A DNA stretch of 62,620 nucleotides, filler included, from 3 parts of 3 records of this genome joined end to end with filler, not necessarily neighbours in it, one strand, 5' to 3'. Numbered from the whole stretch's first letter, positions 10,963-27,767 are shown. Notes: a model not told the origin generated them from the sequence alone. Numbers and translations are program-made.

Positions 10963-10991
10963 GTTAACCATTGGTTTTAACGCACCATTAA
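10963..10991 (+). promoter_or_regulatory. Putative ECF-sigma promoter, copy 1 (before the OmpA gene)
   Basis: GTTAACC-N16-CATTAA; lies 156 nt before the ATG, farther than the other copies. Confidence 0.55.
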
Positions 10992-11118
10992 TACATAAAA
11001 ACAGGCAAGATATACACCTCTGAAGGCGCAAGCCTTAAATTTTGTTAATTTTAGTTAATATATTGACCTAAAGTTGATTGAGGTAAAAAACACTGCGAGA
11101 ACATTAAAATTAAAGATT

Positions 11119-12450
11119 ATGAATCCTTTCAAAATATTCCCCAGAGCAATTCCCGCTTTTCTATTGCTATTCTTCTTTTCCACCGCCCTTCAAGGACAAA
11201 TATTGAAAAAACTGGGAAAGCGGGCAGAAAGGGCTGTAGAACGGACTGTAGAAAACAGGGTAGACAGGGAAGCCTCAAAAAAGACAGATGAAGTATTGGA
11301 CAGCATCTTGGAGCCCGGCAGCAAGGGTCCTTCCACCAACCCTCAGGTTGAGAACCCACTACCTCCAGCTGGACAGGAAAATCCGGGAGGTAGTATTGGC
11401 AATAGTAAAGATATGCCCTCTACGGGTGGCGTAAAAACCATTGAGGTATACAGTAAGTTTGACTATGTCCCCGGTGACAAACCTCTGTTTTATGATGATT
11501 TCTCGAATGAGTTCATTGGAGATTTTCCTTCCAAATGGAATACCAACGGTGGCGGGGAAGTTGTATCCATAAATGACTCCGGTGAAAAGTGGTTAGAATT
11601 GATTTCTGGATACAACATTTATTTTATTCCAGACTTACCAAACCTACCTGAGGAATACACCATTGAATTTGATGTAATGGCCCTTGGATTGGACAACAAG
11701 ACTTCTTCTACAGCATTTCTTAGAGTAGCACTAAGTGATGACGACAAATTTAAGGACGGTGCCAATTTCGTACATGCCCATATCCCTTTTTGCTTATATT
11801 CCCCAATAGGCATCACCATGGCCAATCACATCAATAACAAAAGGGAAATATACAGTGTTGTCAAGGCCGATCTAAGAGATGAGATTGTGGACAGACCACA
11901 TATTTCCATCGCCGTGAATAAGCAGCGGTTTCGATTATGGGTCAACGAAGAAAAACATATCGATATCCCTAGGATGGTTCCTCAAGGAGCTATATTGAAA
12001 TCTTTAAAATTTCATATGAACAATTTTAAGGATGGAAAGGAACGTATTTTTATCTCCAATTTGAAAGTTGCAGAAGGAGGGGTAGACCTTAGACGGAAAT
12101 TGATTTCCGAGGGGGAAGTCTCCACCAATGGTATTTTGTTCGATTCAGGATCGGCCAACATCCAACCGCAATCCATGGGAATCATTCGACAAATTTCTCA
12201 AGTTTTACAGGAAGAAAACGGAATGAACCTAATGATCATTGGACATACAGACGCCGATGGCCCAGAAGATACCAATTTAAGCCTGTCCCAAAAGCGAGCT
12301 GCAGCAGTGAAAAACGCCTTGGTTAGCGTTTATGGTATTTCAGACAGCCGTTTGCAAACCCAAGGCAAGGGAGAAAACGAACCCATTGGGGACAATAATA
12401 CTCCCGACGGCAAAGCCCAAAACAGGCGTGTCGTTTTCAAAAAAATATAA
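11119..12450 (+). CDS. OmpA-family peptidoglycan-binding protein with an N-terminal beta-sandwich domain
   Basis: Signal peptide; C-terminal ILFDSGSA, IIGHTD, NLSLSQKRA and NRRVVF OmpA_C motifs; ATG 11119 preferred. Confidence 0.88.
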   Translation: MNPFKIFPRAIPAFLLLFFFSTALQGQILKKLGKRAERAVERTVENRVDREASKKTDEVLDSILEPGSKGPSTNPQVENPLPPAGQENPGGSIGNSKDMPSTGGVKTIEVYSKFDYVPGDKPLFYDDFSNEFIGDFPSKWNTNGGGEVVSINDSGEKWLELISGYNIYFIPDLPNLPEEYTIEFDVMALGLDNKTSSTAFLRVALSDDDKFKDGANFVHAHIPFCLYSPIGITMANHINNKREIYSVVKADLRDEIVDRPHISIAVNKQRFRLWVNEEKHIDIPRMVPQGAILKSLKFHMNNFKDGKERIFISNLKVAEGGVDLRRKLISEGEVSTNGILFDSGSANIQPQSMGIIRQISQVLQEENGMNLMIIGHTDADGPEDTNLSLSQKRAAAVKNALVSVYGISDSRLQTQGKGENEPIGDNNTPDGKAQNRRVVFKKI

Positions 12451-12480
12451 CGTTAAACATATCCAACTTAAATAAAAAAT

Positions 12481-13173
12481 ATGAGAACACTTATCCTAAT
12501 TTATAGCCTTTTCCTTGTTTCCTCAACAGCATTGTCCCAGAACTGTAGTAAATACTACCCAATGGAAGAAGGTACAAGTTTTCAATATACCATGACCAAC
12601 AAAAAAGGAAAGACAGAAGGAATTACCGACTACTCTATTACAAATGTTGAAAATACAGGTGGCGTTACCACGGCCTCAATGAATATGAAGTTTACCGATG
12701 AAAAAGGAAAGGAAATATTTGTATCCGATTATAAACTTAGCTGTACAGGGGATGTAGTCAAGATAGACTACAATTCACTGGTACCGGCACAAATGATGAA
12801 ACAATATACGGATATGGGGGTAGAAATGGAGATTAGCGGAACAGATATAGAGTTGCCCAACAATCTTAGTGTCGGACAGGGCTTAGACGACGCCAATGTA
12901 GCCATGTCCATCAAAATGCCTGGCATGAACATGAATATTAAAGTAGACCAGCTAAATAGGATAGTGGAAAAAAAAGAAAGTGTCACCACCCCAGCAGGAA
13001 CCTATGAGTGTTACGTGATAACCCAGGACAATGTTTCTGAGACCATGGGCGTAAAACAAACAATGCAATCCAAGTTATGGCTTGCGGAAGGTGTAGGAAT
13101 GGTAAAGCAGGAAACCTACAATAAAAAAGGTGATCTTATGAGCAAAAGCGAGCTTACCTCTTTTAAAAAATAA
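12481..13173 (+). CDS. Secreted beta-rich protein (DUF3108/TapB-like)
   Basis: Signal peptide; ESVTTPAGTYECY and WLAEGVGMVK motifs. Confidence 0.6.
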   Translation: MRTLILIYSLFLVSSTALSQNCSKYYPMEEGTSFQYTMTNKKGKTEGITDYSITNVENTGGVTTASMNMKFTDEKGKEIFVSDYKLSCTGDVVKIDYNSLVPAQMMKQYTDMGVEMEISGTDIELPNNLSVGQGLDDANVAMSIKMPGMNMNIKVDQLNRIVEKKESVTTPAGTYECYVITQDNVSETMGVKQTMQSKLWLAEGVGMVKQETYNKKGDLMSKSELTSFKK

Positions 13174-13248
13174 CGAAAGTAATGCTATTGGTTTAACATA
13201 AATTATGTTTTTAACTTAGCAAGACGCCCATAAAAATCCCTCATTGAC

Positions 13249-14091
13249 ATGTTTACATTATTTCCAGTTACCAAAAAGTTGCTGCCCTATATTTCTTTTT
13301 ATTATGAAATGAAATGGGAAAGCAAGGATTATGATAATGGAATTCGTGAAGTTATCCTACCCAGTGGTAAGGCATTTATGGTTTTTCAGTATGAAGGAAG
13401 GTTTAGGGGAACCATTTATGGCCAGGAACGTTTTGTTCCCAAATATTATACTATTGGTCAGCAGAGTTCCAATTATACCGTATTCTCGGACCATAAAACC
13501 ATGGGGCTAATTGGTGCTGCCTTTAAGCCAACAGGTTTACATAAGTTGTTCAATATAGATGTCTCCACTTATACCAATATACCAACGGACTCCACCTCGC
13601 TTTTTGGTAAGGACATACAACCTTTTGAAGTCTTATTTGAAGCAGAGAATGAAGCCCATAAAAGGGTAGAGCTTATTGAAAATTTGCTTTTGGGCCGGCT
13701 AGGGAACAAAGAATTCAAAGATAATTTTATTGATGTTTCCATAGATTTAATGCATGCCTCCCTTGGCTGCGGCTCCATTTCCTCTATTGTCAAAAAGTTA
13801 AATGTGAGTGAACGCTATTTCCAAAAAAAATTCAAATTAATGGTGGGTATAGCCCCATCAGCATATAATAGAATAATAAGATTCAATAATTTGTTCTCAG
13901 AATTGGACCAACACAATGAAAACGATTACCGTATCTTAAGCGCCCTGTTCCATTATTACGATTCCTCTCACTTTAGGAAAGATTTCAAAAAATACTGCGG
14001 AGAAGTCCCAAAGCAATTTCATTTGGACAAATTTGAATTTGTTAAGGAAGCCTTTGTAAAAAATCCTATTTTTTTGAATAGCACCCCATAA
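13249..14091 (+). CDS. AraC-family transcriptional regulator (DUF6597-type N-terminal domain)
   Basis: C-terminal HTH SERYFQKKFK..VGIAP and YYDSSHFRKDFKKY. Confidence 0.88.
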   Translation: MFTLFPVTKKLLPYISFYYEMKWESKDYDNGIREVILPSGKAFMVFQYEGRFRGTIYGQERFVPKYYTIGQQSSNYTVFSDHKTMGLIGAAFKPTGLHKLFNIDVSTYTNIPTDSTSLFGKDIQPFEVLFEAENEAHKRVELIENLLLGRLGNKEFKDNFIDVSIDLMHASLGCGSISSIVKKLNVSERYFQKKFKLMVGIAPSAYNRIIRFNNLFSELDQHNENDYRILSALFHYYDSSHFRKDFKKYCGEVPKQFHLDKFEFVKEAFVKNPIFLNSTP

Positions 14092-14479
14092 ACCAACACC
14101 ATGCCGGTGTTTTTTTGTTTTACTTTTTATAATAATAGTTTATTAATGAGTATTTAATTACCAAATATCATTTAGGACGGGTTTTTACCAATTTCCTAAA
14201 ATATTGGTCGTATCTTATTGGTAACAAATAAAGCCTTACCCCCCAATCTTTTGCACATGGACTAAAATGTACTTTTGGTATATCCATACTGATATTTAAA
14301 CCATAGTATTGGAACGAACAGTTTAGCTCCAATTACTACTTAAATAAATAATCACTGAGAATTATATGGCCAATCATAAAAACAAAATAGGCATGAAAAG
14401 CCTTTAAATAGGATCAATTGCGATAGGGACGGATGGCTTCCGAACAAGCTTTAAACAGACACCAAAAAAAATAAAAAAT

Positions 14480-14507
14480 GTTAACCTTCCCAAGGAAATA
14501 TCATTAA
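14480..14507 (+). promoter_or_regulatory. Putative ECF-sigma promoter, copy 2
   Basis: GTTAACC-N15-CATTAA, 54 nt before ATG 14534. Confidence 0.7.
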
Positions 14508-14533
14508 AGGGTAACAATAAAAAAATAAGAACC

Positions 14534-14881
14534 ATGAAAACGTTAAAAACATTTTTATTATTAGCCTGTTTGGGCTGTATGGGCTTCATACAGGCCCAAA
14601 CCGAACCCAAGCCAACGACTCCCGTTACCAATAATTTTTTGGATTTGCAGGCCACTACCCTGGGCAACATCTTTGGAGATTCGCTAACTGGGGGTAATGG
14701 GGAGGTAAACGGTTATTTAGATTTGGTAAACAAAAGTGATATGCCCGAGGCAGATAAGCAAAATCTAAGGGATGCGTATATGGAGTATTCCAAATCTTTG
14801 GATGCCCAGGGCAAGGATTCCCTGCAAAAGGGAATGGCCAAAGAATTTATGCTACAAACAAAAAAAGATACCATTAAATAA
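14534..14881 (+). CDS. Small secreted hypothetical protein
   Basis: Signal peptide ending IQA-Q; A-rich initiation region; upstream promoter motif. Confidence 0.7.
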   Translation: MKTLKTFLLLACLGCMGFIQAQTEPKPTTPVTNNFLDLQATTLGNIFGDSLTGGNGEVNGYLDLVNKSDMPEADKQNLRDAYMEYSKSLDAQGKDSLQKGMAKEFMLQTKKDTIK

Positions 14882-14892
14882 AAAACGTTCCC

Positions 14893-15510
14893 ATGAAAAA
14901 TTTGTTTAATACCATCATTATACTGACCCTCCTTTTTTCCTGTGGGGAAACCGTTAATAAAACTGAGGACAGGGCTGAAAACTTAACTGAAATCGACCCA
15001 CAAAATAAAGAGAAAACAGTAGCAAACCGCGGCGACAACACTACCTATTTGTGCAAGATCAACGGGGAAGATTGGGGCTATACCTCGGCCGACGGCCTGG
15101 TATCGCGCAACAGTTCTACCAACATACGCACAGCTACGATTACGTTTATAAAAAAACTAGAAAAGGGCAGTGAGTCGATACAGTTGGAATACAATGTGGA
15201 TGCCAATACCCTGACCCGTGTCTTGGCAGAGCTAAAACGCCCCGATAAAGACGGCAATTTATTTACCAACTTTTACAACCAAGCGGCAGACCGTTTGGAG
15301 CGGAATCCAGAAGCCAGCATGAGCGGGACCGTTACCTTGTCCGAAGACCAACGTATTGCTGCCGGCAATGCCCTTTTCACTGTACAGAACGACTTTGAAA
15401 AAGACAAACTCGGCAACAAGGGCGATCTGTTGATTACCGTTTCGGACCTAAATTTTTCAGGCGTATCCTATTCAGATACGGACGATTTAAAAAAATTGTT
15501 CAAGAAATAG
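14893..15510 (+). CDS. Hypothetical lipoprotein
   Basis: Lipobox LFSC; 11 nt after the previous gene. Confidence 0.75.
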   Translation: MKNLFNTIIILTLLFSCGETVNKTEDRAENLTEIDPQNKEKTVANRGDNTTYLCKINGEDWGYTSADGLVSRNSSTNIRTATITFIKKLEKGSESIQLEYNVDANTLTRVLAELKRPDKDGNLFTNFYNQAADRLERNPEASMSGTVTLSEDQRIAAGNALFTVQNDFEKDKLGNKGDLLITVSDLNFSGVSYSDTDDLKKLFKK

Positions 15511-15651
15511 TCCATTTAAGGTAAATTAAATATTAGAAAGCATTGACGTAACAAATAATATAAATAAACTCTTGAGAGGCTCGTGCCAAACTCATTAAGC
15601 CCTTACCAATTAATAAATAGGAATACATTGTAAATACTTAAAACTAGAATT

Positions 15652-16260
15652 ATGAAAAAAAAACCGATCATTATCATTGCATTTGCAGCGCTTCTGATAG
15701 CATCCTGCATAAAAGACTATGTTCGCCATGGGGGCGACAAAATAGAGCTTACCCAGGATAATTATTTATATGAGGGAGATCTATACCGCGTGTACCTGGA
15801 TCAGGAGATAGCTAAACTGGATGTCACCATTGCGGCCCTGAACGATATCATTGCCAATAATCAGGCCGATCAGACAACCTTGAACGATCTTAAGGCAGCG
15901 GAAGAAGCCAAGGAGAACTTTGTTTCTGAAATAACTACGATCATAGACCTGGGACAAGTAGGTAGGACAATTCCGAGGCCAAGACCGCCTTGCCCTTTAC
16001 CATTAAGCTGTGATTATAGTCTTTTTGAATACCTATTGGCGCCAAATAACGTGGAAAAATTGGAAATATTAATCTTAAATGAGAATGGCAAAACCATTGG
16101 AGGGGGCACAATAGATGATTTAAGTCCCTTGTCCGGTACCGGAGGTATGATCCTATTTAGTAAATTAAAGATTGATTCCTACACAGACCCTATATCCATT
16201 TCAGTAAAAGTTTTTGATGGAAACGGGATATTGCGGAGTTATCTAGTGGAAAGCCATTAG
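15652..16260 (+). CDS. Hypothetical lipoprotein with a coiled coil and a Pro/Cys linker
   Basis: Lipobox IASC; helical segment followed by PRPRPPCPLPLSC. Confidence 0.72.
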   Translation: MKKKPIIIIAFAALLIASCIKDYVRHGGDKIELTQDNYLYEGDLYRVYLDQEIAKLDVTIAALNDIIANNQADQTTLNDLKAAEEAKENFVSEITTIIDLGQVGRTIPRPRPPCPLPLSCDYSLFEYLLAPNNVEKLEILILNENGKTIGGGTIDDLSPLSGTGGMILFSKLKIDSYTDPISISVKVFDGNGILRSYLVESH

Positions 16261-16280
16261 TCCTATTAAAAGGCCTTAAA

Positions 16281-16427
16281 CATACAAAGGCTAATCTAAA
16301 AAGCGTATTTTTATTCCTCTATCGCATCGAACACAGTCGAGCTTGCGTGAACCCTTTTGGTTTAACGTTCTCCACTCTTCCCGAAATGATAGATGAATGG
16401 ACTTTTTAGATTGGCCTTTTTTGTATG
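16281..16427 (+). repeat. Long-range inverted repeat whose right arm covers the CHAT start codon
   Basis: CATACAAAGGCTAATCTAAAAAG (16281-16303) pairs with CTTTTTAGATTGGCCTTTTTTGTATG (16402-16427), with one G-U pair and a 3-nt bulge. Confidence 0.75.
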
Positions 16428-19202
16428 AACCGGTATGCTTCACTTTTACTGATACTTTTTTCCATTACGGCTTTTGCCCAAAAAGCATCCTATGACACCC
16501 AAATGGATGATCTTTTTGTAAAGGCCTACGAGCATTTGTATGTCAACAAGGATTCCGCCTACCATTATTTTAATGAAATAGAAGTTCTGGCCAACAAAAA
16601 CCAGGACTGGGCAACTGTTTTTGAAGCCCTGATCAGCTCCAATAGAAATGCAGGCGCCTTTTATGACCTTGACAAACTAAGTGGCAATCTAAACCGTTTG
16701 GATTCCCTTTTTTTAAAACATAAGCCCTATCTGGATACCCTGCCGGAAAAACGTCTTTATGTTAATTCCTTATTGTACGATAAGGGCAATTATTATTTTC
16801 AACTTAATAATTACAGGTCTTCCCGGCAAACCTTTGGGCAAATTATTGATTCCCTGGAACCATTGCCGAATACGGAAATGGATGAAGAACTAATTGATCT
16901 TCTATCGGTTTCATATAGCTTTATTGCCAAGATGTATACTGATGAAGGTAAATATGAACTTGCCCAACAGTATTACGACAAGAACATTAGGTACATCCTC
17001 CAAAAAAAACCAAATGACCTAGCTTCCCTGAACACAAATTACAGTTTACTGGCGGAACTCTACGGTAAAAAAGGGCAATATGAAAACTCCAACGCCTATT
17101 TCAAAAAGGCACTTGGGTTCTATCTAAAAGTCCAAACCGGCATTAATGGTATTATTGCAACAGCCCATAACCTTTCGGAAAACTATCTAGCCCTTTCCAA
17201 AACAGATAGTGCCCAATATTATCTAAAATTGGCCAAAAACTATTTAAACGAAACCCATCATTTTGCTTCCTATCATCATAGGGTTCAAGCAAAATTGGAA
17301 CAGAAAATGAACAATTATGAATTGGCACTTAAGGAATTAAATTTTGCTCTTCATCTGGAAAAGGAGAAATGGAAAAATGCCAAAAATGAGAGTATCGCCA
17401 TAACTTACAATGAAATTGGAATGCTTCAGGCAGCATTTGGCCAGTATGTAAATGCGGTTGCCAATTATAATCTGGGATTGGAGCAAGTTGAGGACTTTGA
17501 CTCTAGGGGAACCTCAACCTTAAAGCTCCTCAAAAATAAATCTGTTTCCCTAAACAAGCTGGGCAATAATGATAATTATAAGGCCACTATGGAAACAGTA
17601 CATCTTGGCATAAAAACCTTGGACACTTTGAAACCTTCATTTAGGAGCAAGGCAGACCAATTGTTTCTTATTGAAGATGCTTTTCCATTATTTGAATCCG
17701 GCCTGGAAGCTGCATACCAACTTTATGCTTCCACCAGTGACGATTCCCTTATAGATCTCGCTTTCCGATATTCCGAGAAAAGTAAATCTGTCCTATTGCT
17801 GGAGGCCCTTTTGGAAGCCAAAGCCACCCAATTTGCAAATATACCCAATGACGTCCTAGAGAGAGAGAGTGAGTTAAAATCTGAAATCACCTATTTGGAA
17901 AAACAGATCAAGAATTCTGAAACAGACCAGAGCGACCAAAAGGATGCACTTTTCACCCTAAAAGAAGAATACCGACAACTAGTACAAAAACTGGAGGTGG
18001 ACTATAAAAGCTATTACGATTTAAAATACAATACCACTACTGTTTCACTGGAGGTATCCCAAAAATCCCTGTCCAAACACCAACTTCTAATTTCATATTT
18101 CTATGGCAACAAGGCTATTTATGCCATTGCTTTGAATAGAGGTAAAAAGGAAATGTTCCGGATACCGATTGATGCAGACCTGGAGGCAAACATTAAAAAA
18201 GTCTATCAAATGCTTTCCGATCCCAAGTCCGATGTAATTGCATTGGGTAACGCTACTTATAGCATATATGAACTTCTTCTAAAACCGATCTTAAATTCCG
18301 GCGATCAAAAGAAACTAATTATTATTCCCGATGGTCTTTTAAATTACCTTCCGTTCTCGGCTTTGAACACAAGTCCCGGAGGCATAAGATATTTGGCAGA
18401 AAACCATGCCATTGGCTATGTTAATTCGGCCACGCTGCTTTCGGAATTAGAGGAACGGCAACCTAAAGAGCATACCATTTTGGCCTTTGCCCCCAGCTTT
18501 GACGGTACGGTGAGCGTAAGCAATCCCGACCGTGGAAAATTACTGCCGCTACCCAATAACAAAAAGGAAGTTGAACAGATATTAACATCTTTCCATGGCC
18601 GTGCTTATATTGATGGGGAGGCTTCCCTACGCAACTTTAAATCCCAACTAGCCTCTTTTGGGATGGTACACTTGGCCACTCACGCCATTTTTGACGATAC
18701 TGCTCCAGAATACTCCTATTTAGCCTTTGCACAAAATGGAAATGCAGCGGAGGATCTACTCTATGTAGCCGATCTTTACAACCTGCAGTTGGATGCCGAT
18801 CTGGTAACCCTAAGTGCCTGTGAAAGTGGAATAGGGGATCTTAAGCGCGGCGAGGGCTTTCTAAGCTTGGCACGGGGCTTCTTTTATAGCGGGGCAGCAA
18901 GCATTGCCAGCACCTTGTGGAAGATCAACGATGCCAGTACCACCACATTGATGACCAGTTTCTATAAAAATCTTTCCAAGGGAGAGGCCAAGGATGTAGC
19001 CCTTCAAAACGCCCAGATAGAATTTTTGGACAACAATAGGGATAACGCTCTATCGCATCCCTACTATTGGTCGGCCTTTGTAATTTCCGGCAATACATTG
19101 GCACTTTCCCTTCCCTATAATTGGATCTGGTTTATACTAGTAACTCTCGTAGTATTGGTAAGCGGTTTTCTATACTTCAAAACAAAAAAGGGAGTCAATT
19201 AA
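16425..19202 (+). CDS. TPR-CHAT (caspase-like peptidase) protein with an N-terminal signal peptide and a C-terminal TM anchor
   Basis: Multiple TPRs; CHAT motifs LIIIPDGLLNYLPF, HLATHA (catalytic His), LVTLSACESG (catalytic Cys), STLWKIND, HPYYWSAF; TM WIWFILVTLVVLVSGFLYF followed by KTKK. Confidence 0.92.
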   Translation: MNRYASLLLILFSITAFAQKASYDTQMDDLFVKAYEHLYVNKDSAYHYFNEIEVLANKNQDWATVFEALISSNRNAGAFYDLDKLSGNLNRLDSLFLKHKPYLDTLPEKRLYVNSLLYDKGNYYFQLNNYRSSRQTFGQIIDSLEPLPNTEMDEELIDLLSVSYSFIAKMYTDEGKYELAQQYYDKNIRYILQKKPNDLASLNTNYSLLAELYGKKGQYENSNAYFKKALGFYLKVQTGINGIIATAHNLSENYLALSKTDSAQYYLKLAKNYLNETHHFASYHHRVQAKLEQKMNNYELALKELNFALHLEKEKWKNAKNESIAITYNEIGMLQAAFGQYVNAVANYNLGLEQVEDFDSRGTSTLKLLKNKSVSLNKLGNNDNYKATMETVHLGIKTLDTLKPSFRSKADQLFLIEDAFPLFESGLEAAYQLYASTSDDSLIDLAFRYSEKSKSVLLLEALLEAKATQFANIPNDVLERESELKSEITYLEKQIKNSETDQSDQKDALFTLKEEYRQLVQKLEVDYKSYYDLKYNTTTVSLEVSQKSLSKHQLLISYFYGNKAIYAIALNRGKKEMFRIPIDADLEANIKKVYQMLSDPKSDVIALGNATYSIYELLLKPILNSGDQKKLIIIPDGLLNYLPFSALNTSPGGIRYLAENHAIGYVNSATLLSELEERQPKEHTILAFAPSFDGTVSVSNPDRGKLLPLPNNKKEVEQILTSFHGRAYIDGEASLRNFKSQLASFGMVHLATHAIFDDTAPEYSYLAFAQNGNAAEDLLYVADLYNLQLDADLVTLSACESGIGDLKRGEGFLSLARGFFYSGAASIASTLWKINDASTTTLMTSFYKNLSKGEAKDVALQNAQIEFLDNNRDNALSHPYYWSAFVISGNTLALSLPYNWIWFILVTLVVLVSGFLYFKTKKGVN

Positions 19203-19933
19203 TCCAATTCTGCAAGTAGGGCTTGGGCCTTTTCCTTTTTGTAGTCGAAATTTTCAATAAGGTTATTTAGCATAGCCACCGCCTTTACCTCATCCTTAGT
19301 TTTAATATAGGCCAGGGCAAGGTACCAATGGGCCTCGGCCTTAAACTCCATATCGTTTAAGATAACACTTTTCAAAATCTCTATCGCTTCATTATCCTTC
19401 CCCAAATGCATATAGGACTGTGCTAGGTAAAAATTGAAATGTGTTGATCCATTTTTGGTTTTTAGATCCAAGAAAGCAGCGGCTGCCTTTTCATAATCAC
19501 TGGCCTCATAGGCTGCAAAAGCATTCCTTTCCAAGGATTGATCAGCATCACTTCTTGTAATTGTGTAGACGGTATTGGGATAGGTTTCAAAATTGGCCGC
19601 ATATAAATTGTCGTAATCAGGCCCCGAAAAAGTGCTGTAGGCTATCCAACCCAAACCTATTAATAAGGCAATTGAAGCGGCTATGGACCAATTCTTAAGT
19701 CTTGGTTTTGAAGAGATACTTTTATTCTTTGCCTCAATTTCCTTTTCAAAACCGATCAATTTCTGCTTTAGGTTTTGCTTCTGGTTTTTATTGATTATCC
19801 GCTTCAGATCGTTTTCAAATTCGAACTGGGCCTTGAACTCCAAATCCTTTTCCAACAAATCATTGAAAAGCAGTTGCTCATCATCTGTAAGCTGATCTGA
19901 AAAATAGCGATATAATAAAAGTTCCTTATCCAT
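19199..19933 (-). CDS. Putative anti-sigma factor (cytoplasmic N-terminal domain, one TM helix, extracytoplasmic TPR)
   Basis: Starts 2 nt after the ECF sigma stop; anti-sigma-like N-terminus RYFSDQLTDDEQ..F; TM WSIAASIALLIGLGWIAY; TPR-like FYLAQSY and HWYLALAY. Confidence 0.75.
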   Translation of the reverse strand: MDKELLLYRYFSDQLTDDEQLLFNDLLEKDLEFKAQFEFENDLKRIINKNQKQNLKQKLIGFEKEIEAKNKSISSKPRLKNWSIAASIALLIGLGWIAYSTFSGPDYDNLYAANFETYPNTVYTITRSDADQSLERNAFAAYEASDYEKAAAAFLDLKTKNGSTHFNFYLAQSYMHLGKDNEAIEILKSVILNDMEFKAEAHWYLALAYIKTKDEVKAVAMLNNLIENFDYKKEKAQALLAELD

Positions 19934-19935
19934 AA

Positions 19936-20508
19936 TCAGTGGGAATTATTAGCTTGAATCCGTTCCCTCAAGGTTTTCATACAACGGGATTTTGCCGCTT
20001 TTACGACATTTTCACTGTTGTAATTTTCCGCCTTCATGATTTCCTGTATAGTATAACCGCGATAGTAAAAAAGGGTCAATAATTCCTGGCATTTTTTGCC
20101 TAGGGCGCCAAAGTGTTTTTGCAATAATATTTGCTCTGTGGTCAATTCTTGTACTTCCATTTCAAATCCGTTCACCAATTCATCATCCTTGCCTACTATT
20201 GCTAGGTCAAATTTTGAGCCTACCTTTTTTTTATTCTTTTTCATGCGATCAAAAATCAAGTATTTACCAATACCAAAAAGATAGGTCGCAATACTACTGC
20301 TAAAGCTTTCGACCTTTCCACTCATCACATTGTCATAGAAAATAATATAGGCATCTTGATAAACATCTATATTTTCCTCATCCGACAAATGGTACCTCCG
20401 TGCAAAATTTAAGAATTTGTCACGGTTCTCTTCGTAAACCTGTTGCAACGCCTTATCAGAGCCTTTTCTTAGGTCATCGAGCGTAATTTCGGTTTTTGCT
20501 TCTTTCAC
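19936..20508 (-). CDS. ECF (group 4 sigma-70) RNA polymerase sigma factor; start GTG 20508 preferred, GTG 20538 possible
   Basis: Region 2 DVYQDAYIIFY..TYLFGIGK; region 4 LGKKCQELLTLFYY.GYTIQEI..KSRC. Confidence 0.9.
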   Translation of the reverse strand: MKEAKTEITLDDLRKGSDKALQQVYEENRDKFLNFARRYHLSDEENIDVYQDAYIIFYDNVMSGKVESFSSSIATYLFGIGKYLIFDRMKKNKKKVGSKFDLAIVGKDDELVNGFEMEVQELTTEQILLQKHFGALGKKCQELLTLFYYRGYTIQEIMKAENYNSENVVKAAKSRCMKTLRERIQANNSH

Positions 20509-20536
20509 TTTATGGATGGGGATAAATAAGGTTAAC
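20509..20536 (-). promoter_or_regulatory. Putative ECF-sigma promoter, copy 3, at the 5' end of the sigma gene
   Basis: Minus strand GTTAACC-TTATTTATCCCCATC (15 nt)-CATAAA, immediately followed by GTG 20508. Confidence 0.65.
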
Positions 20537-20701
20537 ACCGCGCTATGCTAATTTAACATTTTTTAAAAAAAGACGCCTATGAAAACCCTTAAATAGCGCG
20601 TACAGCTTCCATTTGTAGTATTAGCACTACAAAGAATGCCGCTACTTTACAACAAGATCTAAGTGTTGATAACAAAACACCAAAAAAAAATTCGTCTTGA
20701 G

Positions 20702-20729
20702 GTTAACCTTTCCTTCCCAAAGCTATAAA
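20702..20729 (+). promoter_or_regulatory. Putative ECF-sigma promoter, copy 4
   Basis: GTTAACC-N15-TATAAA, 53 nt before ATG 20755. Confidence 0.7.
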
Positions 20730-20754
20730 GGGTTAAATATTTAAAACTAAAATC

Positions 20755-21801
20755 ATGAAAACAATTAAAATTTTATACCTGGCTTTTGTATTGATCTCCG
20801 TAATATCCTGTGATAAGGATTCCGTTGGCGACATCCCTAATGAACCTAAAGAAGTTGAATCCATTCCCAAAGATGGTGAACTTCCGGCCGAATCACTCTC
20901 ACTGGCATTTACCGTTCAGACCCAACAAGACCAAATGGGCGATTTTGCAGACAATGCCATGGTCTTGTTCAATGGTAAAGTATGGTCCGTTGGTGGTATC
21001 AACGCCTATTCGACCCCCAATTTATCCAGCGATGTCTGGAGCAGTGAAAACGGCAAAAACTGGGTTTCAGTGACAAACGATAAGTTTAGCGAACGCAAGG
21101 GCCATACGCTTACAGTTTACGATGACAAAATGTGGCTCATTGGTGGTGTAGACGATTTGGGTACCTTTTTAGGGGAAATATACTTTTCTACCGATGGAGT
21201 TAATTGGACCATGGTAACCGCCCTTAGCCCCACATTACTTACCCCTGCCTATCACAGCACTGTGGTTTTCAACAACAAACTTTACGTGATCATGGATGGC
21301 CTTGATGACCATGTCACTGTATTGTCATCCAGTGATGGTATAGATTGGAATATTGAAACCGATAATGCCTTTTCCAACAGGGAGGATTTTGAAGCCGTTG
21401 TTTTTGAGAATGCTATTTATGTCATTGGTGGCAAACATTTGGACAGCTCATTCAATGAAATATGGAAAAGCACCGATGGCATTGAATGGAATCTGGTTAC
21501 GCCCAGTACCGACATCTTTAGCCCTAGGTATTCACATACGGCAACGGTTCATAACAATAAGGTATGGATAGTTGGCGGTGTCACCGGGCCTTTAGAGGAG
21601 ACTCACATTGATTTTTGGTACTCTGAAAATATGGAGGATTGGACAGAATATGATGGTCCCTTACCTGCTACCGAAGGTCTTATTCAGCATGCGGCGCTGT
21701 CCTACAATGAGGAATTATGGCTCTTTGGAGGATTACAGCCAAATGCCTCCGGCTCGGCTTTTATAACAGGTGAGATTAGAAGTATTAAAGAAGAAGAATA
21801 A
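20755..21801 (+). CDS. Kelch-repeat beta-propeller lipoprotein
   Basis: Lipobox VISC-DKD; repeated KVW.VGG, KMWLIGG and IYVIGG kelch motifs with S.DG..W boxes. Confidence 0.85.
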   Translation: MKTIKILYLAFVLISVISCDKDSVGDIPNEPKEVESIPKDGELPAESLSLAFTVQTQQDQMGDFADNAMVLFNGKVWSVGGINAYSTPNLSSDVWSSENGKNWVSVTNDKFSERKGHTLTVYDDKMWLIGGVDDLGTFLGEIYFSTDGVNWTMVTALSPTLLTPAYHSTVVFNNKLYVIMDGLDDHVTVLSSSDGIDWNIETDNAFSNREDFEAVVFENAIYVIGGKHLDSSFNEIWKSTDGIEWNLVTPSTDIFSPRYSHTATVHNNKVWIVGGVTGPLEETHIDFWYSENMEDWTEYDGPLPATEGLIQHAALSYNEELWLFGGLQPNASGSAFITGEIRSIKEEE

Positions 21802-21809
21802 ATGTCAAT

Positions 21810-21838
21810 GTTAACCTATAGCATGACTTAAACATAAA
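21810..21838 (+). promoter_or_regulatory. Putative ECF-sigma promoter, copy 5
   Basis: GTTAACC-N16-CATAAA, 52 nt before ATG 21862. Confidence 0.7.
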
Positions 21839-21861
21839 TAGAAAACTCTAAAACCCTAGTT

Positions 21862-22353
21862 ATGAAATCAATATCCACAATTAAAATCGAAGTAAAAAAT
21901 ATTTGGAAAGTAGGACTGATGCTTTTGGTAATAGCAACCATTTTAAGTTGCAACAAAGACGACGATCCTGAAATGGAGGACGCGCATCTGGCCGAAAGTT
22001 CGCAAGAACTACTTATTGGCAAATGGTTTTATAATGTAACCTCAAATGGTGATGCATCTGCCTGTGAAGCACAATCGTATTACAATTTCACAGATACGCA
22101 AAAATTGGAATATCAACTTGTTATTGATGATTTTGGTCTTGTTGTAGGTGGTTACGAATTAATTGGTGATTGCTATGTTTCTCCTGTGACCTCAATAAAT
22201 TACAGCCTAAATACCGCCAACGAAATACAATTTTTAAATGAATATGAAGACACAATTAATTTAAAAATAGTATCCATTAACGAAACCACACTGGTATTTA
22301 CAAAAGGTACTTTAGACGATACAACCACTTATATTTTAATGAAAGAACTTTAA
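21862..22353 (+). CDS. Lipocalin-like-domain lipoprotein
   Basis: Lipobox ILSC-NKDDD; LLIGKW motif; KIVSINETTLV C-terminal strands. Confidence 0.72.
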   Translation: MKSISTIKIEVKNIWKVGLMLLVIATILSCNKDDDPEMEDAHLAESSQELLIGKWFYNVTSNGDASACEAQSYYNFTDTQKLEYQLVIDDFGLVVGGYELIGDCYVSPVTSINYSLNTANEIQFLNEYEDTINLKIVSINETTLVFTKGTLDDTTTYILMKEL

Positions 22354-22365
22354 AATAAAATAATT

Positions 22366-23448
22366 ATGAATACTATAAATAAAATAAAAAGAGACTCCGT
22401 ATTTAAAAGAGTAACCAAATATGCCATAATTATATTAGTATTGGGCTCCTTGCTTAATTGTCATAAAAATGATGATGATGTTGCTAACTCAATAGAAAAT
22501 CAATTATTAGGTAAATGGGAAGTTACTGGTGGCACCTTTTTAGAATCGCAACCTAAATATCTCATTTTCAATAGTAATAATACCGTAAATTTTTTAAGCG
22601 AACATAGTTTAGGTTTTAAGGCAAATGAAAATTTCGACTACACCGTTTCAGGATCTGAAATCAAGATAAATGTACAAGGCTTTTTCCCTTTTGAATTTAT
22701 TTTAGAGCAGAATACACTACAGATTATTCATGGTGATAATGCTTTGGAGTTAACAAAAAATAATTCGGCACCTACTTCAGACGATTGGGTAAAAAAGCTT
22801 TCTATATTAAGTAAAGGAGACCCTCCTTCTGGCGGTAAAGTAGATATAGCATTTACATACAATAAAACGGAAATCGTATATGGCATGGGCAGTGCTGCCA
22901 CCTATATTTCCCTTATAGATCCTGAAACATTTACAGAGGTTGGTTCCATAGAAACAACAAAAAAAGCAAAAGTTGTAGAAGTTGAAAACTTTGGTGCCCC
23001 GGATAGGTATCTTTTTCAAAGTGATGACAATTCCAATCTAGTTAGTGTTTACACAATGAATGATGGAGCATTTCAATTTACATTACAAGTAGACGATGAT
23101 ATATCTGGTATGGCTTCAGCTAATTCCGATTTTCTATGGGTTGTATCAAACAACAATGAAGGGAGTATCAATTTGGTAAATGTAGCAGATAACACTATCG
23201 AACAGTCAATCTCATTGGGTTATTATAATCTATACGGGATGGACTATCAAAATAACTTCATATATATTACTGATGGCAAATACTTACACAAATGCCAAAC
23301 AACACCAACATTTAAAGCTGTAACCTCTTATGAAGTATCTGATTTTGCTATGCAAGGTATTGCCTTCGATGGCACAAACTTCTGGGCAAGTGGTTTTGAC
23401 GATTTAGAGAGTGACTATAAACTGGTTAAGACCAATCTTACCTTATAA
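22366..23448 (+). CDS. Lipoprotein with an N-terminal lipocalin-like domain and a C-terminal beta-propeller
   Basis: Lipobox LLNC-HKNDDD; LLGKW; propeller-type GMDY.NNFIYI and GIAFDGTNFW repeats. Confidence 0.7.
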   Translation: MNTINKIKRDSVFKRVTKYAIIILVLGSLLNCHKNDDDVANSIENQLLGKWEVTGGTFLESQPKYLIFNSNNTVNFLSEHSLGFKANENFDYTVSGSEIKINVQGFFPFEFILEQNTLQIIHGDNALELTKNNSAPTSDDWVKKLSILSKGDPPSGGKVDIAFTYNKTEIVYGMGSAATYISLIDPETFTEVGSIETTKKAKVVEVENFGAPDRYLFQSDDNSNLVSVYTMNDGAFQFTLQVDDDISGMASANSDFLWVVSNNNEGSINLVNVADNTIEQSISLGYYNLYGMDYQNNFIYITDGKYLHKCQTTPTFKAVTSYEVSDFAMQGIAFDGTNFWASGFDDLESDYKLVKTNLTL

Positions 23449-23512
23449 CCTTCAAAATAAAAACAGCACCAAAAACATTCCTTATAAACCTGTTAATTTA
23501 AAATAAGTAATT

Positions 23513-24109
23513 ATGAAAACTGCAATTAAATCGTTAAGCTTAGTTATAGTATTAGTGGCCCTTACTTTTACATCATGCACCAAAGAAGGGGAAACAGGGC
23601 CTATGGGACCAGCGGGTATAAACGGAACCGATGGAACTGATGGGGAGGACGGAAACGATGGCAATGCCAATGTCATGGCCTCAGATTGGCTGGAACCTAC
23701 CGAAAGTTCTTATAGCGTTAACAATCCAAGATATAAGGCCTTACCTCTTGCAACAAATCTGAATTCAAGTTTATTGGAGGACGGGGTTATTCTTGTGTAC
23801 TATGATAATGACGTAGATATTTATCTCCTACCCAATCATATATTCGCTCCTGATGGCACTATATTAAAATCGATAGATTCAAAAATTAATCGTGCCTCCC
23901 GCAATATATATGTCAATATTCAACGTTCCGATTCCGATCTAACTCCAGGTGAATATCTCTGGGACCCAAGCGGTCCGCCATATGGGAAAGGAGTTCGATT
24001 TAGATATGTAATCGTTCCCTCCAACGCTGCTTCCGGTAAAAAGGCTGCAATCGACTACAAGAAAATGTCCTATGAAGATGTAATGGACCATTTCGGATTG
24101 GATTATTAA
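23513..24109 (+). CDS. Collagen-like (Gly-X-Y) lipoprotein A
   Basis: Lipobox FTSC-TKE; GETGPMGPAGINGTDGTDGEDGNDG; GNANV; C-terminal YEDVMDHFGLDY. Confidence 0.82.
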   Translation: MKTAIKSLSLVIVLVALTFTSCTKEGETGPMGPAGINGTDGTDGEDGNDGNANVMASDWLEPTESSYSVNNPRYKALPLATNLNSSLLEDGVILVYYDNDVDIYLLPNHIFAPDGTILKSIDSKINRASRNIYVNIQRSDSDLTPGEYLWDPSGPPYGKGVRFRYVIVPSNAASGKKAAIDYKKMSYEDVMDHFGLDY

Positions 24110-24132
24110 TAACCATTATTTGACAACAAATT

Positions 24133-24162
24133 AAAAAGCCGAGGATCTCACTCGGTTTTTTT
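24133..24162 (+). terminator. Intrinsic terminator
   Basis: GCCGAG-GATCTCA-CTCGGT followed by a T-tract. Confidence 0.8.
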
Positions 24163-24172
24163 ATGTACCAAT

Positions 24173-24200
24173 GTTAACCTTTTAGTTAGGCCACCATTAA
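24173..24200 (+). promoter_or_regulatory. Putative ECF-sigma promoter, copy 6
   Basis: GTTAACC-N15-CATTAA, 55 nt before ATG 24228 and just after a terminator. Confidence 0.72.
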
Positions 24201-24227
24201 AACATAGAAACCATAAAAATTACGGTC

Positions 24228-25736
24228 ATGAAAATCTATAAATCAATTTTGGGAATTTTAATACTACTTATAACAACTATGGGCTGCCAGAAAGATGATG
24301 ACGGTACCATTTATTTAAGTGATGCCAAACAAATAACAGCCTTCAAAATCTTGAAAACCGAAAACCCTTCCTTGACGCAGGACATTATAGGTACAATTGA
24401 TCAGGATACCAGAACCATAACCGCCATGGCTCCAAATAGCACCGACTTAAATGGTCTTGTCCCCAGTATACAAGTATCATCAAAGGCATCCATTAACCCG
24501 ATGGCAAGTCAAGATTTTGGCAACACTGTAATTTATACGGTTACCGCTGAGGATAAAACTACGGTAGCCTATGAAGTAAAGATACAAGTTGCCCAGAATA
24601 GCGAAAAGAAAATAAGGTATTTCAATTTTGTACCCGCCGATAACCCAACATTGACGGCCACTATAGTTTGTACAATTGACGAAGATTCAAAATTGATTAC
24701 TGCAACTATTCCCAACAATGTAGACCTGTCCTCCATGACTCCCGAGATTGGGCTATCTCCTGGGGCCACAATAGACCCTACTGGAGTCCAAAATTTCACG
24801 GGAAAAGTGACTTACACGACAACTGCAGAAGACGGTTCAACCAATATTTATGAGGTTCAATTAACCAACCTCGCTACCAAACAAAAAACTGTTTTGGAAG
24901 ATATCTTAAGTACAAATCCAGGAAACACTCTAGGTTGGGATTTAAGTACCTCAGATTTAAGTACTTTGGAGGGCGTGTATACCTGGGAAACAGGAGAAAT
25001 ATATAGGATAGACCTTTCTGGAAAGGGCATAAAGGTAATACCCACAGCCGTAGGTGAACTTAAGTACTTGAGCTTCCTTAAACTTTCCGATAACAATATT
25101 GATTTTATACCCGAGGAGATAGGATTATTAACCAATTTATCAAGCTTATATGTAGACAACAATATGCTTGACGCATTACCGGCTGCACTTTGGACAATTA
25201 CAGGACTTAGGAATCTGGGGTTAAATAGCAATAATTTAACTTCCCTACCCAATGAAATTGGCTCGCTATCAAATTTAGGACAGCTTAATATCTCAAATAA
25301 TAATATACAATCAATTCCGGCAACAGTTGGGAACTTTACCCAATTGACCTATTTGAATTTTAGCTCCAACAACATTGAAGCCCTGCCCACAGAAATAGGA
25401 CAACTTTCAAATCTGCAATATTTTTATGCTACGGACAATGAGTTGACCAATCTTCCCGAATCAGTTTGGGATTTAGGGAGCATTCAATATTTCTCGATAG
25501 GTAGCAACAATTTCTCTACCTTACCCAATGAAGTAGGACAACTTACGGCTTTGATAGAACTAAATATATCAGACAATAACCTAACAGCCCTTCCCTCTTC
25601 CATAGGAGAACTCATTAACCTGGATGAGTTGGATTTGCGCACCAACAGTTTTACATCAATACCTCAGGCTGTTTGTGATCTGGAACCTGACCATGGCACC
25701 CAAATTCATAAAGATGAAAGTGTTAGCTGCGAATAA
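24228..25736 (+). CDS. Lipoprotein with two Ig-like (DUF5018-like) repeats and leucine-rich repeats
   Basis: Lipobox TMGC-QKDDD; duplicated TID..TITA..YTVTAED and YTTTAED units; LRRs LxxLxLxxNxLxxLPxxIG. Confidence 0.87.
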   Translation: MKIYKSILGILILLITTMGCQKDDDGTIYLSDAKQITAFKILKTENPSLTQDIIGTIDQDTRTITAMAPNSTDLNGLVPSIQVSSKASINPMASQDFGNTVIYTVTAEDKTTVAYEVKIQVAQNSEKKIRYFNFVPADNPTLTATIVCTIDEDSKLITATIPNNVDLSSMTPEIGLSPGATIDPTGVQNFTGKVTYTTTAEDGSTNIYEVQLTNLATKQKTVLEDILSTNPGNTLGWDLSTSDLSTLEGVYTWETGEIYRIDLSGKGIKVIPTAVGELKYLSFLKLSDNNIDFIPEEIGLLTNLSSLYVDNNMLDALPAALWTITGLRNLGLNSNNLTSLPNEIGSLSNLGQLNISNNNIQSIPATVGNFTQLTYLNFSSNNIEALPTEIGQLSNLQYFYATDNELTNLPESVWDLGSIQYFSIGSNNFSTLPNEVGQLTALIELNISDNNLTALPSSIGELINLDELDLRTNSFTSIPQAVCDLEPDHGTQIHKDESVSCE

Positions 25737-25769
25737 TAAAATCAGGACATCCATGGTAAATAGCATTTT

Positions 25770-25798
25770 AAACCGAAGTAGGCACTTCGGTTTTTTTT
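25770..25798 (+). terminator. Intrinsic terminator
   Basis: CCGAAGT-AGGC-ACTTCGG followed by T8. Confidence 0.85.
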
Positions 25799-25806
25799 GC
25801 TCTGGT

Positions 25807-25834
25807 GTTAACCTTTTCAACTCAGAATCATAAA
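25807..25834 (+). promoter_or_regulatory. Putative ECF-sigma promoter, copy 7
   Basis: GTTAACC-N15-CATAAA, 56 nt before ATG 25863 and just after a terminator. Confidence 0.72.
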
Positions 25835-26438: not shown

Positions 26439-26458
26439 CTCTTTTGCCACATAAAAAC

Positions 26459-26488
26459 AAAAAACCGAGGCTTACACCTCGGTTTTTT
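26459..26488. terminator. Intrinsic terminator ending the lipoprotein array, overlapping the lipB stop
   Basis: A6-CCGAGG-CTTACA-CCTCGG-T6. Confidence 0.8.
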
Positions 26489-27194: not shown

Positions 27195-27240
27195 GCTTCA
27201 AAAATATAAATATCGTTCTGAAAATGATCAATTTTCCTTT

Positions 27241-27737: not shown

Positions 27738-27767
27738 CATGGTTTTTTCGGACTTGCCCGTTATAGA

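Follow-up and report, generated by a model that had tools for sequence, protein, structure and literature searches.

An island of motif copies around an ECF sigma factor gene

The window, by which we mean the whole stretch of 62,620 bases analysed here, contains a sigma factor gene of the extracytoplasmic function (ECF) type together with genes for predicted lipoproteins and secreted proteins and seven copies of a bipartite motif, GTTAACC-N15/16-YATWAA. An earlier note on this DNA had proposed that the motif is the promoter recognised by that sigma factor and that most of the island is its regulon. The sigma gene is followed on the same strand by the gene for a candidate membrane-bound anti-sigma factor, and converging on the latter lies a separate gene, on the opposite strand, for a protein with tetratricopeptide repeats (TPR) and a caspase-like CHAT domain. 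Motif, spacing, co-occurrence, covariation, gene linkage and positions were all established by sequence comparison. The central features, in window coordinates, are:

10963..10991, + strand: predicted promoter copy 1 (N16), 5' of the OmpA-family and DUF3108-like genes; weight-matrix score 25.7 bits
14480..14507, + strand: predicted promoter copy 2 (N15); weight-matrix score 32.9 bits
20509..20536, − strand: predicted promoter copy of the sigma gene itself (N15), whose −10 box directly adjoins the start codon, so that RNA is predicted to begin within the coding sequence, at about 20503-20501; from the sequence
20548..20555, − strand: sigmaA-type box TAAATTAG, after the consensus TAnnTTTG (−12 to −5), from which a housekeeping start at about 20543 is predicted
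20702..20729, + strand: predicted promoter copy 4 (N15), divergent from sigma; pattern match and matrix score
21810..21838, + strand: predicted promoter copy 5 (N16); pattern match and matrix score
24139..24162, + strand: terminator-like hairpin (24139-24155) and T-run preceding copy 6
24173..24200, + strand: predicted promoter copy 6 (N15); pattern match and matrix score
25770..25799, + strand: intrinsic terminator preceding copy 7, hairpin 25770-25793 plus T-run
25807..25834, + strand: predicted promoter copy 7 (N15); pattern match and matrix score
19936..20508, − strand: ECF-type sigma factor, 190 residues, GTG start at 20508; TIGR02937 and orthologue starts
19199..19933, − strand: candidate anti-sigma factor, 244 residues, with an N-terminal helical domain, a transmembrane helix (82-102), a linker and a periplasmic TPR domain; domain scan and model
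19550..19582, − strand: codons of conserved linker residues 118-128, ending Ile-Thr-Arg127-Ser, with a candidate cleavage site after Arg127; conservation
16425..19202, + strand: signal peptide, TPR, CHAT domain and C-terminal membrane anchor, 925 residues, candidate site-1 protease; domain scan, conservation and fold

All seven copies were found where the earlier note had placed them, and the pattern has no other match in the window; dinucleotide shuffles gave a mean of 0.03 and a maximum of 1 match (100 shuffles). With a weight matrix trained solely on orthologous loci L005-L070, minus two near-identical loci, the copies scored 25.7-32.9 bits; the matrix scan of the window revealed no eighth copy, the next-best site scoring 8.0 bits, and the best of 8 shuffles reached 12.7 bits. 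Five copies begin 54, 53, 52, 55 and 56 nucleotides (nt) before an ATG, in agreement with the range of 52-56 nt reported before. The copy at 10963 lies 127 nt upstream of the likely ATG of the OmpA-domain gene, and the final base of the copy at 20536 directly precedes the GTG of the sigma gene. The two copies described as sitting right after intrinsic terminators, at 25807 and 24173, indeed do so; the terminator scan assigned the hairpin at 24139-24155 to the minus strand, and hairpin and T-run are visible on the plus strand. It is also correct that the genes at 12481, 14893, 22366 and 23513 have no site and that each lies downstream of a site-bearing gene. The genes at 13249 (AraC), 15652 and 16425 (CHAT), absent from that list, have no site either. 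The copies occupy a fixed chromosomal slot between rnhB and lipB-lysS, with a guanine-plus-cytosine content that is not distinct. From its sequence we read the consensus, TGTTAACCTT-spacer-CATWAA, as very likely the −35 and −10 elements of a promoter for the ECF sigma factor encoded at 19936-20508.

The motif in related loci and genomes

Because the pattern was derived from the copies in the window, it was tested on other sequences. The close set consisted of 70 orthologous loci from Flavobacteriaceae (1.32 Mb), the nearest from an Arenibacter assembly with 98% sigma identity; L071 (unrelated sigma) and L066 (no upstream DNA) were left out of its counts, and four duplicate or close loci, together with loci in which the sigma call failed, were left out of a more distant set. 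In the 70 loci we found 341 strict sites, compared to 0-1 in five shuffles. The spacing was equally constrained: among 482 GTTAACC cores, YATWAA followed at N15 in 277 and at N16 in 64, and at N14 or N17 in 2. Only 7 of the 341 sites lay inside genes, and a same-strand ATG was present 15-45 nt downstream of 215 of the 279 sites not at a sigma gene. Genome-wide counts were taken from the genomes of relatives. In G001 (Arenibacter sp.), the nearest genome with full flanks, all 7 matches fell within the island, in support of a local regulon. Across 251 family genomes, which are not independent, a sigma homologue was present in 62, and 22 of these had three or more matches of a stricter pattern; none of the 189 genomes lacking a homologue did.

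Motif variants and the recognition helix of the sigma factor

The sigma factor matched TIGR02937 with 50.2 bits over residues 20-183, above the cut-off of 42.9, and PF04542 with 22.2 bits, slightly below the cut-off of 24. Its best hit in the PDB was SigW (E 0.0013). Like ECF (group 4) factors it has about 190 residues and Sigma-70 regions 2 and 4 only, and the motif has by sequence the form of an ECF promoter, with AAC in the −35 box and about 16-17 nt to the −10 box. A scan for sigma70-type promoters performed at chance level (42 vs 50.7).

The variants of the motif follow the sigma factor encoded in the same locus. Tables of covariation were compiled without loci that lacked a site or had discordant sites. 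For 36 divergent sigmas, the own site and the divergent site of a locus shared the variant at −35 position 4 in 32 cases (19.9 expected) and at −10 position 3 in 31 cases (20.3 expected). The −35 variants track residues 166-170 of the recognition helix: out of about 190 alignment columns, the best predictors were columns 166, 167 and 170, in the region-4 helix. In a larger set, GTTAACA accompanied Arg170 in 10 of 11 cases, and where the residue was a different one the base was not A in 55 of 57, the best association of all columns. Covariation of the −10 box with Gly64 and Phe69, in the region-2 loop, was weak (p 1 for Gly64). In the parts of Todor et al. that bear on promoter recognition, Arg171 of RpoE sets the −31 base, spacers of 16-18 nt are allowed, and +1 lies about ten nt from the flipped −10 base. 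Replication in orthologous loci, co-occurrence with the sigma gene and covariation with region-4 residues together support the proposal that the motif is the promoter of this sigma factor.

The copy at the sigma gene

In the close set, the −10 box of the own site ends within −1 to +1 nt of the sigma start codon in 67 of 69 loci. The start is ATG or GTG, the latter at about half of the own sites, and the sigma homologues begin at the same residue as the sigma of the window. Among 78 representatives with an own site, less than 80% identical, the site abuts the start codon in 67 and lies 5-54 nt upstream in 11. In many close loci the TAA of the hexamer forms an in-frame stop immediately 5' of the ATG. 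Two other starts for sigma were considered and rejected: the upstream GTG at 20538, as a stop stands directly before the ATG in many orthologues, and a downstream start producing a shortened sigma, as no in-frame start is conserved within the first 40 codons.

The bases that follow the hexamer suggest where transcription might begin. At own sites, a purine is found 7 nt past the hexamer in 99 of 100 cases, over three reading-frame offsets, compared to 52-66% at control positions of the coding sequence. At target sites, A stands 6 nt past the hexamer in 73% of cases and 7 nt past it in 77%, and divergent sites have a pyrimidine at +5 in 58% and a purine at +6 in 88%. Because of these signatures, and of the geometry of sigma70-family promoters, the start is predicted at about 20503-20501, in codons 2-3 of the sigma gene. 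A transcript initiated there would lack the capacity to code for sigma and would include the anti-sigma gene, and sigma would therefore have to be made from another promoter. A TAnnTTTG-like box precedes the core by 14-22 nt at 54 of the 68 sigma sites of the close set and at 6 of 279 target sites. Among the representatives, a sigmaA box lies upstream of 39 of the 67 abutting sites (53 with a looser box), of none of the 11 far sites and of 4 of 76 divergent sites; judged by sequence, the housekeeping box appears to occur where the own site cannot make sigma.

The site that the earlier note expected at the sigma factor's own gene is present. Positive autoregulation is common, though not universal, among ECF sigma factors; with a predicted start inside the coding sequence and a sigmaA-type box upstream, the own copy is probably not a site of the usual positive autoregulation. 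We consider it fairly probable that it serves negative feedback without the usual positive loop.

In a sister clade of sigma factors (L139, L140, L142, L191-L193, L197 and L198), the −35 box is GGT(T/G)AC and the helix has a different sequence. The own site of this clade lies 7-17 nt 5' of the ATG, with no sigmaA box, an arrangement that fits positive autoregulation.

The membrane protein and the CHAT protein

Sigma, the membrane protein and the CHAT protein are the sole genes found in all 59 full-length loci, and a transmembrane protein occupies the position directly after sigma in 59 of 59. When sigma and residues 1-82 of the anti-sigma candidate were modelled together, the predicted complex scored 0.76, the best control reaching 0.01; this mark was attained by 51 of 78 solved pairs and by 2 of 108 mismatched pairs, and the score may profit from likeness to solved sigma/anti-sigma pairs. 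The runs agreed in at least 94% of contacts, with a predicted local distance difference test (pLDDT) of at least 83 for the partner. In the model of the anti-sigma candidate, N-terminal helices and the transmembrane helix (82-102) are followed by an extended linker (115-133) and then by the TPR domain. No Cys/His zinc ligands occur in residues 1-80, and none is conserved; the Atlas search gave no named family beyond TPR. The model makes it very likely that the protein encoded after sigma holds sigma at the inner membrane.

In the linker, Asn120 and Arg127 are each kept in 123 of 125 sequences, and Gly or Ser follows the Arg in 121 of 125. The CHAT protein has a signal peptide in 102 of 118 sequences and a C-terminal transmembrane segment in 102 of 118. 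Its His753 and Cys799 are conserved in 117 of 118, Asp836 in 117 of 118 and Asp636 in 112 of 118. By fold it matched Csx29 (top), DdvA and separase; by sequence, the best PDB hit of the CHAT domain was 8ROT (DdvA), at E 0.03. Asp636 and Asp836 are at positions like those of the acids described for the S1 pockets of the Arg-specific clan CD proteases MALT1 and gingipain (as covered in PMC4357240), which makes the CHAT protein a candidate for Arg specificity. The second of these, Asp836, is common to DdvA, and Csx29 has no aligned Asp.

The three genes stay together in loci whose sigma is as little as about 33% identical. A profile of the anti-sigma candidate gave matches in 44 of 301 genomes across the phylum, up to five per genome, and a sigma gene adjoined the match in 29 of 30 such loci. 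Two types of CHAT protein share the slot in the island: one follows a lipoprotein of the 15652 type (33 of 35), the other a subtilase lipoprotein (17 of 17). That each type has its own upstream lipoprotein suggests that sensor and partner are exchanged as a pair. Some loci have the look of a mosaic, such as L014, with a TPR part 39% and a CHAT part 80% identical to that of the window, suggesting shuffling of the sensor domain. In the assemblies of L022, L035 and L062, the CHAT gene beside the anti-sigma gene is in two pieces, either genuinely or through a sequencing error.

Genes of the island and the predicted regulon

The remaining features of the island are:

11119..12450, + strand: secreted protein with a C-terminal OmpA domain, predicted direct target; 31 orthologous targets
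12481..13173, + strand: DUF3108-like secreted protein, predicted co-transcribed target; in 43 of 59 loci
13249..14091, + strand: AraC regulator, which probably does not belong to the regulon; a sigmaA-like box of its own lies 37 nt upstream, and only 6 of 59 loci have the gene
14534..14881, + strand: small secreted protein that matches no known family, predicted to be a direct target; 36 targets among orthologues
14893..15510, + strand: predicted lipoprotein, predicted co-transcribed target; from the sequence
15652..16260, + strand: predicted lipoprotein that accompanies this CHAT type, lacking a site in the window; a site precedes the orthologue in 16 loci
20755..21801, + strand: Kelch-repeat predicted lipoprotein, predicted direct target; domain scan and orthologous targets
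21862..22353, + strand: lipocalin-like predicted lipoprotein, export-signal-like Cys-Asn-Lys-Asp-Asp-Asp, predicted direct target; from the sequence
22366..23448, + strand: predicted lipoprotein with no Pfam family, predicted to be co-transcribed here; own site in 19 orthologous cases
23513..24109, + strand: short-collagen-repeat predicted lipoprotein, predicted co-transcribed target; domain scan
24228..25736, + strand: predicted lipoprotein with DUF5018 and leucine-rich repeats, predicted direct target; domain scan
25863..26438, + strand: second short-collagen-repeat predicted lipoprotein, predicted direct target; orthologous targets
26454..26493, either strand: bidirectional terminator separating the end of the array from lipB; terminator scan

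The predicted regulon of the window thus comprises six direct targets and four co-transcribed genes. The claim that most of the island belongs to it stands for these ten or so genes and probably not for the AraC gene, with its own sigmaA-like box; the genes at 15652 and for the CHAT protein, which have neither a site nor a sigmaA box within 200 nt, could be reached by read-through only, and may receive it from 14480.

In the close loci, the 275 open reading frames (ORFs) downstream of strict sites fall into 34 clusters. A crude rule classed 176 of these 275 as lipoprotein-like, compared to 157 of 788 other ORFs, and 145 have at least 2 acidic residues after the Cys. An export signal K-(D/E)2 after the lipobox is described for surface lipoproteins of Bacteroidota (in the parts of PMC5080379 that concern it); the exact K-D-D is found in 2 of the 8 lipoproteins of the window. 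Short-collagen lipoproteins are the commonest targets (69), before the small secreted helical protein (36) and, with 31 each, the OmpA-domain protein and Kelch lipoproteins; subtilase, NHL, PKD and CHAP proteins are rarer. If transcription starts 6 nt past the hexamer, the target leaders would be 18-23 nt long; the median leader of Flavobacterium psychrophilum is given as 24 nt (PMC9723704, as far as it treats leaders).

For the OmpA-domain gene, the ATG at 11119 agrees with the start of the orthologues; the ORF caller gave TTG 11074. Its predicted leader is about 120 nt long (10992-11118), with a small hairpin at 11023-11036, and several orthologues of this gene also have no ATG within 60 nt of the site. 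Rfam gave no match in the island, and the Atlas search no named family for the 14534 protein. No gene for a double-glycine-type peptide was seen among the short ORFs that follow strict sites in the 70 loci of the close set. A role in defence is unsupported, as PADLOC gave cross-hits of the OmpA domain to ZorB only (1 of 14 proteins).

In 23 loci (L010, L012, L015-L019, L025, L027-L030, L033-L035, L041, L047, L051-L054, L059 and L070), a conserved ORF for a peptide of 27-35 residues with a single membrane helix lies just upstream of sigma on the opposite strand; it falls below the length cut-off of the ORF calls, was not found in the window, and is the first ORF after a strict site in 17 of the 23. 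Elsewhere in the window, a SAM riboswitch (RF00162, 69.7 bits) lies at 33643-33761 on the plus strand, upstream of alpha/beta-hydrolase and homoserine dehydrogenase genes. Five RNA or RNA-like sequencing runs, all as contigs, matched small shares of the window; the four compared with it cover scattered pieces, and one of them is probably DNA. In run X1, one contig skips 633 nt (27137-27771) spanning a DUF559 gene at 27249-27653, which may be an insertion carried by some strains only.

Weighing the interpretation

Several observations weigh against the interpretation, or limit it. Locus counts are inflated by kinship throughout. Sigma and motif variants are associated through only 4-5 changes on the tree; the well-supported independent pairs number just 1-3, each of them uninformative or pointing the same way, and a sign test on such pairs gave p 0.25-1 (41-49 rows, then 68-80 rows) and had no power. 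Residue 170 of sigma (K170) is presumably the counterpart of Arg171 of RpoE, although our attempt at an alignment left that helix unaligned. Of the 62 genomes with a sigma homologue, 40 have fewer than 3 strict matches. A reversed control pattern reached 3-4 matches in 5 of 251 genomes, though never 5, and the looser pattern, with 7-11 matches per genome against 5-16 for its control, was not above control in most of 5 genomes. In genomes other than G001, some matches fall outside the island, at about control level for the loose pattern, and in G059, with 9 matches, two stretches with several matches gave no sigma hit. In the distant set, the own site abuts the start codon in just 25 of 53 loci. 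The 11 far sites belong mostly to one sister clade, 8 of them having the GGT −35 box, so that the contrast between abutting and far sites comes close to a single evolutionary event. The junction between the sigma and anti-sigma genes measures −22 to +9 nt, and in most of 119 loci the stop of the one and the ATG of the other overlap or are almost adjacent; translation of the anti-sigma may therefore need that of sigma, which would weaken any output of anti-sigma alone. Finally, only 11 of the 30 loci from across the phylum have a CHAT gene within the 1.5-kb flank.

The two stretches of G059 (L127, G059:C1:277000-296900; L128, G059:C2:1062000-1081500) contain motif clusters and gave no hit for sigma, anti-sigma or CHAT; the sigma homologue of this genome is located away from them, possibly reflecting a dispersed regulon.

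Two alternatives accept the motif as the promoter of the sigma factor and concern its own copy. The own copy could be an ordinary site of positive autoregulation if the mRNA were leaderless and began at the start codon itself, which would explain the rigid gap of −1 to +1 nt. This is unlikely, since the start would have to lie about 24 nt from the box read by region 4, 6-7 nt short of the geometry of sigma70-family promoters. Moreover, the purine signature is at +6/+7 and not at +1, half of the own sites have GTG, the sigmaA box is confined to abutting sites, and the sites of the sister clade that lie 5-7 nt before the ATG are themselves what a leaderless start at +6 to +8 would produce. Leaderless mRNAs do form about 5.5% of those of F. 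psychrophilum, and target leaders of 23-28 nt, which a start at the codon would imply, also fit its 24-nt median (both from the leader statistics in PMC9723704). Somewhat less unlikely, though still a minority view for us, is that the own copy acts mainly as a roadblock, the sigma holoenzyme shutting the overlapping housekeeping promoter while little anti-sigma is made, its translation being coupled to the sigma ORF. The sigmaA box, 16-20 nt 5' of the −35 box, would bring the two polymerases to overlap, and the touching of stop and ATG would favour coupling. The anti-sigma start nevertheless has A at −3 in 58% of loci and at −13/−14 in about 70%, and A at −3 is a positive determinant of initiation in this phylum (PMC6847099, for the determinants it covers). 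A roadblock would in any case still give negative feedback, by another route.

The remaining alternatives deny that the motif is a promoter of the sigma factor. It might be the operator of another regulator, such as the AraC protein or a dimer binding an inverted repeat, with sigma as a bystander. GTTAAC is palindromic, three copies in the window have a partly complementary downstream arm, an inverted arm matches at 8 or more of 10 positions in 20 of 273 sites (8 expected), and at the sigma gene the motif sits 3' of the housekeeping promoter as a repressor site would. But AraC is present in 6 of 59 loci and the motif in nearly all, a sigmaA box that could be repressed is absent from target sites (6 of 279 have one), 253 of the 273 sites have no inverted arm, and the variants track residues of the sigma helix, which leaves an operator very improbable. 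That the copies are recombination sites, attC-like or dif-like, marking exchangeable cassettes is hardly credible, even though they are 28-29 bp long, one copy heads many genes, and the content of the array between lipB and sigma is highly variable (34 target clusters). No recombinase was found among the 31 ORFs of the window scanned (the rarer clusters were not scanned for recombinases), and sigma, anti-sigma and CHAT are the sole universal genes. There is also little pairing (mean fold z −0.7 in 80 of 273 sites folded, with 19% below −2, values on which an RNA hairpin was rejected as well), and the copies stand at fixed spacing to an ATG, in both orientations, one abutting the sigma start codon.

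A model for the sigma circuit

As a whole, a promoter for the sigma factor, with an own copy that skips the sigma gene, is likely to be the best explanation. In this model, the sigma-anti-sigma operon would be transcribed from the housekeeping sigmaA promoter, the own site filling the 5' leader of that transcript, and the membrane protein would hold sigma. The TPR-CHAT protease, triggered through its TPR domain, would cut the anti-sigma linker after Arg127, and intramembrane proteolysis would then release sigma; by analogy with DdvA, we find this route somewhat more credible than not. Once released, sigma would activate the lipoprotein and secreted-protein genes around it, about 10 in number, in this Arenibacter-like genome of the Flavobacteriaceae. 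From its own site, RNA would begin 6-8 nt past the −10 box, beyond the start codon, giving an mRNA for the anti-sigma only, and sigma would compete with or occlude its own housekeeping promoter. Start sites, binding, cleavage, feedback and signal are what we infer here. As to the signal, our guess is an envelope or surface-protein cue, read together with the lipoprotein encoded directly before CHAT.

More tentatively, there may be a three-part family throughout Bacteroidota in which a periplasmic caspase-like sensor-protease, exchangeable with its partner lipoprotein, cuts a TPR anti-sigma after one Arg. In Flavobacteriaceae the own promoter would have moved onto the start codon, giving a purely negative loop and a self-limiting pulse of surface proteins; the sister branch would have kept positive autoregulation, and the promoter variants could serve as a recognition code and as a reporter.

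Even for DdvA, neither the signal that activates a periplasmic CHAT/ECF system nor its cleavage step has been settled (PMC11506125, in its treatment of activation). The split version, found in culturable marine bacteria (Zobellia, Maribacter and Arenibacter), makes both testable: its defined promoter can drive a reporter, a single cut site is predicted, and protease and substrate are encoded by genes that can be separated. Through the motif, the regulation of a group of surface lipoproteins that are so far unstudied also becomes accessible. An own-gene promoter that skips sigma, if real, is also a caution for the prediction of regulons from motifs, which assumes positive autoregulation.

Comparison with known systems

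A membrane-bound TPR anti-sigma with a near-invariant Arg-Gly/Ser linker, together with a separate periplasmic TPR-CHAT protease, looks like a split version of the DdvS/DdvA system of Myxococcus xanthus. As described in the published accounts of that system, an ECF sigma factor, DdvS, is paired with a single-pass anti-sigma with a periplasmic TPR-CHAT part and a His/Cys dyad (PMC11506125, PMC6061681; PDB 8ROT), and its promoter, GTAA-n16-CGT, occurs in four copies in about 26 kb (PMC11506125, PMC6061681). Regulated proteolysis led by CHAT is put forward there as a proposal (PMC11506125). The system of the window shares the ECF sigma, the single-pass anti-sigma, the periplasmic TPR-CHAT dyad and the bipartite promoter copies in a local island. 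In DdvA, however, TPR-CHAT is fused to the anti-sigma, whereas here the protease is separate, membrane-anchored and encoded on the opposite strand, and the TPR domain of the anti-sigma is small and a CHCC zinc-binding site is absent. The −10 box is CAT here and CGT for DdvS, and the regulon consists of surface and secreted proteins, unlike the cyclic oligonucleotide-based antiphage (CBASS) and clustered repeat (CRISPR) genes controlled by DdvS. DdvS, moreover, is made from its own promoter, while the own site here appears to skip sigma.

A stand-alone TPR-CHAT protease that cuts a sigma-binding protein in trans is known from type III-E CRISPR, in the Csx29/Csx30/CASP-sigma system (in the portion of 10.1101/2023.06.23.546230 that describes it). 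The CHAT protein here resembles this Craspase in standing alone and in having a sigma-binding protein as its candidate substrate. Craspase, however, is cytoplasmic, RNA-activated and CRISPR-linked, whereas the present protein has a signal peptide and a membrane anchor, and no Cas family was found among the window ORFs scanned; Csx29 cuts after Met/Leu, unlike the predicted cut after Arg127. For the own copy, the closest parallel comes from the rpoE operon of E. coli, where the sigma-dependent promoter rseAp3, located within the sigma gene, gives an anti-sigma mRNA without sigma (PMC8595263, in its account of this promoter). Both would start inside the sigma gene and yield an mRNA for the anti-sigma only, but rseAp3 lies about 230 nt before rseA, alongside a positive sigmaE promoter, whereas the copy here has no second own site beside it, shares its DNA with the leader of the housekeeping transcript and extends up to the start codon.

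ECF54 sigma factors occur near a CHAT-TPR protein and subtilases (PMC7826278, group descriptions); a CHAT-TPR protein is nearby here too, and a subtilase lipoprotein precedes one CHAT type. ECF54, however, is actinobacterial and has no anti-sigma, whereas the present host belongs to the Flavobacteriaceae and an anti-sigma is present. The −35 box of ECF274 (CAACCTTT/CTCTTT) is similar and its −10 box different (PMC7826278, group descriptions). In the part of that classification covered, no Bacteroidetes group is described with both a TPR anti-sigma and CHAT (PMC7826278). The literature searched, with poor coverage of subscription papers, gave no description of the Bacteroidota module or of the motif; supplements on start sites in F. 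psychrophilum and those of Todor et al. could hold the motif. An ECF promoter with a local regulon is of a known kind; what is new is the split protease and an own promoter that appears to skip the start of its sigma gene.

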